Shown here: positions 9,154-9,750 of the stretch, in pieces
Layout: each line of letters starts with the position of its first letter
How positions within the stretch are numbered: the stretch's first letter is position 1
IMG/VR virus record: IMGVR_UViG_2671180608_000012
DNA: 10,537 bases
Source of the DNA: a virus
Taxonomy: Duplodnaviria; Heunggongvirae; Uroviricota; Caudoviricetes
Reading direction: 5' to 3' (one strand)
The notes under the pieces: generated by a model
What the model saw: the letters and a program-made list of their open reading frames with translations, nothing else
What the model was told of the DNA's origin: nothing
Database searches by the model: none
Translations under genes and position numbers: made by a program

Positions 9154-9304
9154 AAGAAATAAAAAATTTTATTGCAATCACTCTTGACAAGGTTTACTCT
9201 CTTTTAAGAGATGCTTAACAGGTTTTCTAAACGGATATCCTTTCTGGGATATCTATCTTTTATCTTAAAAGTTTTTACAGATACTTTAAAGATATCTGTA
9301 TATA

Positions 9305-9381
9305 TTCTGTACAGTAACTTTTCAGAGTCTGAAAATTTTTATAAAATCGTAGTAGCCCCTCTTCAAATTCCCCTTCTAAAA
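9305..9381. repeat. Direct repeat copy 1 containing the 17-bp palindrome TTTTCAGAGTCTGAAAA
   Basis: CTGTACAGTAACTTTTCAGAGTCTGAAAATTTTTATAAAA...; second copy at 9522-9610; abuts the N-run at 9382. Confidence 0.55.
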
Positions 9382-9408
9382 NNNNNNNNNNNNNNNNNNN
9401 NNNNNNNN
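9382..9408. other. Run of 27 N (assembly gap or masked bases)
   Basis: Directly visible in the sequence. Confidence 1.
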
Positions 9409-9521
9409 TAGTACATCCCTATAGGTTACCCCTAAAAATGGGGTTAAAACTCGCTACAGAGCTTTCTATGAGATTAGCTTCTAATCGAATCAACTATGAG
9501 GTTTGGTAGGATTGTGCAAAA

Positions 9522-9610
9522 TCTGTACAGTAACTTTTCAGAATCTGAAAATTTTTATAAAAAATGACTAGCCCTCTTTGAATCTCATCTTCCCCGAATC
9601 TTCGAAAATA
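9522..9610. repeat. Direct repeat copy 2 containing TTTTCAGAATCTGAAAA
   Basis: First ~45 bp near-identical to 9305-9350, then diverging. Confidence 0.55.
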
Positions 9611-9750
9611 TCTGTCTAGTTGATTCGGTAGAATCTACCTCATGATGTATACGTGTTTAGTACCCGTCACACCAGCTATGTGACCCCCTTGGCAAAAAAG
9701 CCAAATATCAGCTACATCCATGTAACTATTCAGTAACTTATTTAGCAAGT

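Follow-up and report, generated by a model that had tools for sequence, protein, structure and literature searches.

Non-coding DNA resembling that of Felix O1-like phages in a chromosomal island of Escherichia coli and Shigella: a candidate control region of a satellite-like element

The DNA analysed here is the 10,537-nucleotide IMG/VR record IMGVR_UViG_2671180608_000012 (Caudoviricetes), referred to below as the window. The study concerns the non-coding gap between a gene for a Dam-family methyltransferase and a gene for a small serine recombinase, together with the chromosomal island family in which this gap recurs. An earlier note, made from the letters of the window, had described the gap as a repeat-dense regulatory region. 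Comparison with related loci and with phage genomes identified two non-coding modules in it, designated P and T, each of which is homologous to a non-coding region of the Felix O1-like phages (Ounavirinae). The gap and its borders contain the following features.

8491–9153, minus strand: gene of the Dam-family methyltransferase, whose C-terminal domain is HTH_7; it borders the studied gap on the left.
About 9183–9292, minus strand: module P, the upstream region of the leftward operon headed by Dam; it includes a GATATC hairpin at 9233–9254.
9276–9300: palindrome TACAGATAC-TTTAAAG-ATATCTGTA, overlapping the right-hand edge of module P.
9307–9346: block 1, copy A, CTGTACAGTAACTTTTCAGAGTCTGAAAATTTTTATAAAA, with a palindrome (9319–9335) centred on a GANTC site.
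9382–9408: first N-run, an assembly gap with a different island variant on each side.
9409–9522: left flank of a variant type, as in islands where a ~2-kb non-coding region replaces Dam (L013, L014 and L015).
About 9523–9718: module T, the palindrome and the sequence beyond it; it matches the phage junction at one end of the direct terminal repeat (DTR).
9738–9831, minus strand: 3′ end of a small serine recombinase gene on an inserted variant segment, with the stop codon at 9738–9740; duplicated at 9875–9955.
9832–9874: second N-run, also an assembly gap.
9875–10413, minus strand: small serine recombinase gene (PF00239; 183 aa in intact relatives), the last codons of which are lost in the gap.

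The motifs listed in the earlier note were found again in the letters. The 17-bp palindrome TTTTCAGA(G/A)TCTGAAAA lies at 9319–9335 and 9535–9551 (chance expectation 0.01), the recurring motif CAGTAACTT lies at 9312, 9528 and 9731 (chance expectation 0.09), and GATATC is present at 9234, 9248 and 9291. The N-run at 9382–9408 does stand beside the first repeat. The inverted pair GATTAG-ctt-CTAATC is real as well, and is located at 9472–9486 instead of the 9460–9474 originally given. Two direct repeats can be read at 9297–9376 and 9513–9592; they are 80 nt long and 78% identical, and contain a 40-nt core that is identical save for the central base of the palindrome. The second N-run had been overlooked. 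It has a duplicated recombinase 3′ end on both sides, comprising 81 nt (9751–9831 and 9875–9955) that are 96% identical with three mismatches.

The tandem repeat and its likely origin

The repeat arrangement was compared with three draft assemblies that encode an identical Dam protein. These sister assemblies are 99.9% identical to the window over 5491–9346, contain one repeat copy, and have a Dam–recombinase gap of only 369 bp. In all three, the equivalent of window position 9346 joins directly to the equivalent of 9563, and window 9522–9831 overlaps their sequence on both sides of that junction. The extra DNA in the window consists of 9347–9521 and 9751–9874, each of which touches an N-run. 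The tandem arrangement is seen in no closed E. coli genome, and a second copy of the palindrome block was found in none of 52 related loci, each of which has exactly one. The recombinase-dependent deletion between two direct repeats that had been envisaged finds no counterpart in these single-copy loci, the second repeat being most likely an artefact. An invertible or deletable segment calls for two sites per replicon; the second site of the window abuts N-runs.

Both sides of the first gap have contiguous equivalents elsewhere. The sequence to its left (9200–9381) occurs uninterrupted in other islands at 97–98% identity, and the right flank of block 1 within it (9347–9381) is contiguous with module P in islands L063, L037 and L030 (97–98%, full length). 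The sequence between the two gaps (9409–9831) aligns contiguously and over its full length to E. coli Q5 (L013) at 95.8% identity. This middle piece diverges from the sister assemblies by 1.3%, ten-fold more than its surroundings (0.13%). The flank 9409–9522 is missing at this position in L003 and in L022–L024, and it probably derives from a second island copy; some complete genomes have up to three copies of the island. Because the sister assemblies and the 52 loci are single-copy and the variants are contiguous elsewhere, the extra segments look artefactual. The tandem palindrome repeat and the duplicated recombinase 3′ end most likely represent a scaffolding or gap-filling mix of two island copies. 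Until they have been compared with related genomes, repeats on either side of an N-run are best regarded as assembly artefacts. The description of the gap as a repeat-dense recombinase or methyltransferase site holds only in part, and what stands out most in it is probably artefactual.

Two modules in common with Felix O1-like phages

Window 9523–9710, which covers most of module T, matches 249 phage records at 72–77% identity with E values down to 8e-19. All of these records are Felix O1-like (Ounavirinae) save one that is named as a Staphylococcus phage. The phage counterpart is a ~1.7-kb non-coding region between convergent gene blocks. The genomes that Felix O1-like phages package end in short exact DTRs (PMC4837284, PMC8303462). 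The DTR is 608 bp in UAB_Phi87, as determined by Bal31 digestion and run-off sequencing (PMC4837284), and 581 bp in Pr103Blw, as determined with PhageTerm (PMC8303462). Since none of the records of UAB_Phi87, JLBYU28, BPS17W1 and Seyj1-1 has both terminal-repeat copies, the UAB_Phi87 DTR sequence was taken from supplementary Fig. S1 of PMC4837284. It maps to 3128–3712 of the JH2 locus (L001), and therefore the physical DNA end lies between ...GATGTATATCTGC and TTGGTAGCCC. The homology to the window covers L001 3001–3181 by BLAST, extends to ~3215 in the alignment, and crosses 3127/3128; given the mapped DTR, it spans the DTR end. It runs from ~127 bp outside this end to ~90 bp inside, which places the phage homologue of module T at a mapped repeat boundary.

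When 11 phages and 5 islands were aligned, module T resolved into four collinear blocks. Conservation was profiled over 43 distinct island sequences, with columns scored as conserved at 95% or above. In the list below, ^ marks the physical end of the DTR.

9523–9562: block 1, copy B, at the start of module T; palindrome at 9535–9551; phage counterpart TTATTCAGAATTTTAAAATTTTTATAAAA.
9596–9619: block 2, AATCTTCGAAAATATCTGTCTAG, with the conserved core AAAATATCTGT; at least 95% conserved in the 43 islands and also present in phages.
9644–9668: block 3, GATGTATACGTGT^TTAGTACCC; phage counterpart ...ATCTGC^TTGGTAGCCC.
9686–9718: block 4, CCCCCTTGGCAAAAAAGCCAAATATCAGC; phage counterpart CCCCCTTTGCA(A/G)AATTTTAAAATATC, in the first ~90 nt inside the terminal repeat.

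Block 1 of the alignment comprises the palindrome and AAAATTTTTATAAAA. Block 3 has the consensus CTGC^T(T/A)(G/A)GTA(G/C)CC, which includes the cut position, and the equivalent position in the window is predicted to be 9658/9659. Block 4 reads CCCCCTTTGCA..AAATATC inside the repeat, and its exact phage version is found in many islands (L015 at 96%). The invariant columns among the islands fall in the blocks common to phages (2, 3 and 4), which lie on both sides of the position of the DNA end, and the spacers vary freely. These discrete blocks, at least 95% conserved, uphold the proposal of the earlier note that the gap is a cis-acting region rich in protein sites and not filler.

The central base of the block 1 palindrome is C in 23, G in 18, A in 9 and T in 2 of the 52 loci. 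A free centre of this kind would fit a dimeric DNA-binding protein. The palindrome centre is also a GANTC site with a free N, and the single-copy intergenic region of 382 bp has six GANTC sites, where 1.1 are expected. Together with the neighbouring gene for a Dam-family enzyme ending in HTH_7, this could point to a methylation switch in which the Dam–HTH fusion or a GANTC methyltransferase acts on the palindrome and the clustered sites. However, islands in which no Dam gene adjoins the module keep it unchanged, and the phage counterpart has two GANTC sites only, both within a dispensable 24-nt element (9620–9643). Such a switch is the least probable of the explanations considered here.

That element is one of two hairpin mini-elements in this part of the window.

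9468–9493, minus strand: mini-element TTGATTCG-ATTAG-AAG-CTAAT-CTCAT, the stem of which is the GATTAG-ctt-CTAATC pair.
9620–9643, plus strand: 24-nt mini-element TTGATTCGGTAGAATCTACCTCAT, 100% identical between phages and islands.

The perfectly conserved 24-nt core was considered as a packaging signal and rejected, being a dispensable indel in phages and islands alike. Phages mio, garuso and AYO145A lack it cleanly, as do islands L014 and L015, and 9 of the 52 island loci have it. The element at 9468–9493 has a nested insertion in its loop in L014 and L015. A family of the form TTGATTC-(stem-loop)-TCAT, 21–52 nt long and with at least 13 variants, occurs in both phages and islands. Its stems show compensatory changes (GGTAGA/TCTACC, GATTAG/CTAATC, GATAGA/TCTATC, GGATG/CATCC and GGTTG/CAACC); copies lie within phage terminator loops, and a TCATAG direct repeat is often found on both sides. 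Many short hairpins, presence or absence between genomes and compensatory stems, the hallmarks of REP/MITE-like elements, were all found for 9468–9493 and 9620–9643. Because they are dispensable, the mini-elements do not belong to the conserved signal. They do show that DNA is still being exchanged between phages and islands. No candidate enzyme for moving them was identified. Further copies lie at L013 3574, L014 2609 and 3596, and L015 952 and 2609, and in the phage loci at L006 1954 and L016 3519.

Module P matches a different part of the phage genome. A search with 9155–9300 retrieved 253 phage records, all of them Ounavirinae (E 1e-7). Read in the direction of Dam, window 9271–9214 is 86% identical over 58 nt to JH2 76765–76820, and collinear further matches are formed by TAAACCTTGTCAAG and TTGCAATA. 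The match of module P extends over JH2 76765–76905, with an E value of 6e-9 for the island against JH2. The GATATC hairpin falls within this match. The phage counterpart is the divergent intergenic region between JH2_110 and JH2_111, of which JH2_110 heads the structural-gene block. The module P sequence is also conserved in L003. Scans for sigma-70 promoters gave counts at or below the expectation from shuffled sequence.

The island and its links to Ounavirinae

In the complete genome NZ_CP098841, a homologous island of ~11.7 kb is inserted between tonB and yciI; the island size is taken as 11–12 kb throughout. Read in order, its genes specify a large serine recombinase of 506 aa, a "baseplate" protein and a tape-measure protein; then come several small genes of unknown function, the genes for a helix-turn-helix (HTH) protein and for Dam, the studied intergenic region and the small recombinase. 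The HTH protein has weak similarity to replication initiators, and the genes from Dam through the baseplate gene are all on one strand. The large serine recombinase adjoins tonB, and the tonB–yciI site is occupied in L003, L013, L014 and L015. No capsid, portal or terminase genes were recognised in the island, whose virion-type genes are limited to the tape-measure and baseplate-like genes. The island has three of the traits expected of a phage satellite, namely an integrase with a fixed insertion site, an incomplete set of virion and packaging genes, and a link to one helper family.

Of 5426 complete E. coli genomes, 421 (~8%) contain a match to the control region and its flanking genes, which is chromosomal in every case. 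The plasmid collection gave no match to the region, and an exact 24-mer of the core had no matches in contigs representing one genome per species. The family seems to be confined to E. coli and Shigella, or to be too diverged elsewhere. Variants occur at the tonB–yciI site, in which Dam is replaced by a ~2-kb non-coding stretch (L013 882–2828, L014 905–2872 and L015 1183–3480). This stretch is rich in TTAACAG/CTGTTAA-type repeats and resembles the interior of the phage terminal repeat. In L015 the small recombinase is missing, and in Q5 (L013) a gene for an HNH endonuclease lies close by.

The island-wide comparison bears on two further proposals of the earlier note. The gap had been suggested to be an att-like site; related genomes place it ~0.8–1.5 kb inside the island and not at its boundary. 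In L003, for example, the region lies at 12755–13124, with yciI at 14499 and the integrase, the large serine recombinase, at the far end. The palindromes had also been suggested to bind the adjacent recombinase. They would then be sites of the small serine recombinase (res, hix-like or for multimer resolution), and the direct repeats would be substrates for deletion or integration. As in res, hix and gix systems, a short AT-rich palindrome does lie near a small serine recombinase gene. The likely recombinase repeats are located elsewhere, however.

10430–10537: res-like cluster of five GTCTCAWAAG repeats (10430–10535), upstream of the recombinase gene and running past the window end.

All five copies of GTCTCAWAAG are on this other side of the gene, in res layout, and none is in 9191–9740. 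The palindrome is perfect over 17 bp and has a free central base, but its 1-bp centre departs from the even-length spacer that serine recombinases are expected to need for a 2-bp staggered cut. Over 12 nt, its half-site TCTGAAAAGTTA matches the TCTCAAAAGTTA repeats that lie upstream of the gene at 92%, but the half-sites are inverted relative to the res-like GTCTCAAAAGGA-AG-TCCTTTTAAGAC. The flanks switch at block 1, where a reciprocal exchange between two islands would yield the arrangement in the window. Against this, 46 loci have flanks of adequate length, and 27 of these keep block 1 with no recombinase gene on its right, among them L015, which was read from end to end. The module also occurs in islands without an adjacent Dam gene. 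A homologous block is present in virulent Felix O1-like phages, and the 52 relatives have one copy per locus. A role of the palindromes as recombinase sites is improbable. Just past the window end (L003 13787–13815) there is a 26-bp palindrome, GTCTCAAAAGGA-AG-TCCTTTTAAGAC, with a 2-bp centre, which is a plausible crossover site by its sequence. A promoter-like TTGAGA-17-TAGAAT is located upstream of the recombinase gene at 10532–10504 on the minus strand.

The protein-coding genes and the GATC content of the island also connect it to the Ounavirinae. A protein present in 299 phage records, nearly all of them named Ounavirinae, matches the baseplate-like protein at 70% identity across 98% of the length of the latter. 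In JH2 this homologue is JH2_087, which adjoins the tape-measure gene, and the gene order is the same as in the island. The nearest phage relatives of the island tape-measure protein are likewise Ounavirinae: identity is 44% to Hafnia phages and 32% over 97% of the length to Felixounavirus (E 1e-54). Phage JH2 (L025 and L026; 87.7 kb) contains no GATC site against 291 expected. The window outside its insertion sequence IS600 has none against 33.5 expected, and both GATC sites of the window are inside IS600. The L003 island (2744–14450) has three where 47 are expected; in its chromosomal flanks the count is normal, at 57 for an expectation of 64. The phage genus is known to lack GATC (PMC5477317, PMC4690856).

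These observations bear on whether the region might be non-functional, as a relic of phage recombination or part of a decaying prophage, with its repeats mere assembly noise. The duplication is indeed very likely an artefact, small indels and mosaic flanks are numerous, the tape-measure open reading frame (ORF) of the window has 425 aa against 707 aa, and IS600 has inserted. Nevertheless, the blocks are at least 95% conserved across 43 diverged variants with free spacers between them, and the two phage non-coding modules keep their relative positions in hundreds of genomes. The complete avoidance of GATC is upheld, which is unexpected for a decaying remnant. A non-functional relic is very improbable, although slightly less so than a methylation switch.

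A possible satellite of Felix O1-like phages

The evidence leans, if only slightly, towards the region being a cis-acting control region of a satellite-like island of Felix O1-like phages, built from DNA that looks like that of the helper. The comparisons establish the homologies, their placement against the mapped DTR end, the pattern of conservation, the exclusive tie to Ounavirinae and the single copy in relatives; how the island lives and what its modules do is inferred, as follows. The helper terminase would recognise and cut replicated island DNA at module T, and the island would be packaged into helper particles. With an island roughly one-eighth the size of the helper genome, concatemers are the likely packaged form. 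Module P would tie expression of the leftward operon from Dam to the baseplate gene (Dam, the initiator-like HTH protein, the tape measure and the baseplate-like protein) to the transcription programme of the helper. More tentatively, and with a probability somewhat short of even, the islands may form a widespread E. coli and Shigella satellite family that mimics both the DTR end and a promoter of its helper, has its own versions of tail genes, avoids GATC and exchanges mini-elements with the phages.

Several observations weigh against this interpretation. The second DTR boundary has no counterpart in Dam-type islands, and islands with the long non-coding region have only a weak 17–23-nt match to it, in inverted orientation. 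Recognition of module T by the terminase would follow from one line of evidence, the position of the module relative to the DTR end. The 24 nt that match best are dispensable, and part of the BLAST score comes from this mobile mini-element. Block 4 of the phages is promoter-like, and module T could be transcriptional and not a packaging site. Module P has no convincing sigma-70 promoter directed at Dam. No island-sized circular or virome contigs were found: searches of IMG/VR with three patterns returned Felix-like phage genomes and two island copies in large provirus calls, with no island-sized viral contigs, and no circular metagenome contig was detected by terminal overlap for the 43 loci. 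Finally, the tandem arrangement of the window might, less probably than from misassembly, stem from a genuine strain-specific exchange at the 40-nt block.

A serious rival assigns module T to the control of transcription or replication. It would be a genome-end early promoter or an origin, fired by helper or host factors, and would have no part in packaging. Phage block 4 overlaps two promoter-like sites that score 10 of 12 and lie just inside the DTR (L001 3149–3177 on the plus strand and 3196–3168 on the minus strand); these are possible genome-end promoters of Felix O1-like phages. The block 4 of the window, however, has lost the −10-like TAAAAT, and there is no correctly oriented gene downstream on either strand in phage or island. 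A weak promoter-like TTTTCA-17-TAAAAT at 9319–9347 in block 1 and an AT tract that is a potential unwinding element would suit this function. So would the initiator-like HTH protein encoded ~1 kb away and the TTAACA repeats that fill the phage DTR, phased at 11 bp in the manner of iterons, but the island module is without iterons. Block 3, the most conserved one, falls on the mapped DNA end and not on a promoter hexamer. Overall, a control element of this type is unlikely, and it nonetheless deserves more weight than the alternatives discussed above.

Phage satellites and the mimicry of packaging sites are already known. A satellite family of a virulent, DTR-packaging helper, with helper tail genes and GATC avoidance, would be new. 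In the literature searched, no satellite of Felix O1 or other Ounavirinae phages and no tonB–yciI island were described, and no satellite was reported for a DTR-packaging helper among enterobacterial phages.

The satellite reading can be compared with four known systems. PLE of Vibrio cholerae is a satellite of the virulent myovirus ICP1 (PMC9638900, PMC9410903). PLE resembles the island in being a small chromosomal island that is integrated by a large serine recombinase, is linked to a virulent myovirus and not to a temperate phage, and has no capsid or terminase genes; it depends on helper machinery, as the island would. The two have no sequence relationship, and the link of the island to its helper is a non-coding mimicry of the DTR junction and of a promoter region. 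The island also differs in having helper-related tape-measure and baseplate-like genes, neither of which is known from PLE.

Satellite P4, with the cos site of P2, and the cos-type SaPIs and PICIs such as SaPIbov5 copy the packaging site of the helper, and the helper terminase packages the satellite. A satellite-borne copy of a helper packaging site would follow the same principle here. The helpers of P4 and the SaPIs are temperate and use cohesive ends or headful packaging, whereas the helper family here uses DTRs, and one of the two boundaries is mimicked. At the concatemer junction of T7 and T3, a cis-acting pac signal lies in unique DNA beside the terminal repeat. Plasmids with the T7 junction were reportedly packaged as concatemers (Chung and Hinkle, 1990). 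The likeness consists in a signal in unique DNA that abuts the terminal repeat, for which the evidence in the island is position relative to the DTR end; the T7 and T3 signals have no sequence similarity to module T.

PICMIs are satellites of virulent vibriophages that are packaged as head-length concatemers without capsid remodelling (PMC10803314). They likewise pair a small island with a virulent phage, and an island of 11–12 kb would need concatemers to fill a head with a capacity of 87 kb. PICMIs differ from the island in their size of 5–8 kb, their tyrosine integrase and AlpA, their random (headful) ends and the lack of an identified helper-like packaging site.

Felix O1-like phages are the classic typing and biocontrol phages of Salmonella and E. 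coli. If the satellite reading is true, the islands would be a common and overlooked determinant of the response of E. coli and Shigella to a family of phages employed in therapy and in food safety, and a PLE-like satellite of a virulent phage would exist in the best-studied bacterium. It would also offer a first handle on the packaging signal of such phages: because the conserved blocks are common to satellite and helper, they define a candidate of ~200 bp that can be tested on a plasmid.

RNA-level explanations were also considered for the gap. An Rfam scan of the whole window with E up to 1 returned no relevant match and one chance miRNA match elsewhere, and the window has no tRNA or tmRNA. 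Folding of 9523–9740 on the two strands gave z-scores of −1.6 and −1.7, which are not distinctive relative to shuffled sequences. A structured non-coding RNA was rejected, having no Rfam family and a folding energy not well below that of shuffled controls. A hammerhead-like reading of CTATGAG-hairpin-CGAATC was likewise set aside, as the invariant core is not matched and Rfam is empty.

Two further features lie towards the left of the window. The tape-measure ORF of the window (13–1290, minus strand) encodes 425 aa, and the window ends 12 bases past its stop codon. Its alignment with the 707-aa L003 protein is confined to the N-terminal 421 aa of the latter, at 60% identity; the ORF is either truncated or a short variant.

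3135–4404: IS600 (IS3 family), 99.7–100% identical to Shigella and E. coli copies.

Because of this IS600, the window is assigned to E. coli or Shigella. Two paralogous genes of unknown function (1679–2389 and 4386–4997) flank the inserted element, and the sister assembly contig L023 stops at the same IS600 edge. On the recombinase side, the near-identical islands of L022 (GCA_001252475.1) and L023 (GCA_001260315.1) adjoin different chromosomal genes: in one of the two assemblies these form a methyltransferase/MAPEG/DUF72 cluster, whereas the neighbour in the other is yciI. The difference points either to a second site of insertion or to a rearrangement mediated by an IS within this Shigella-like lineage.

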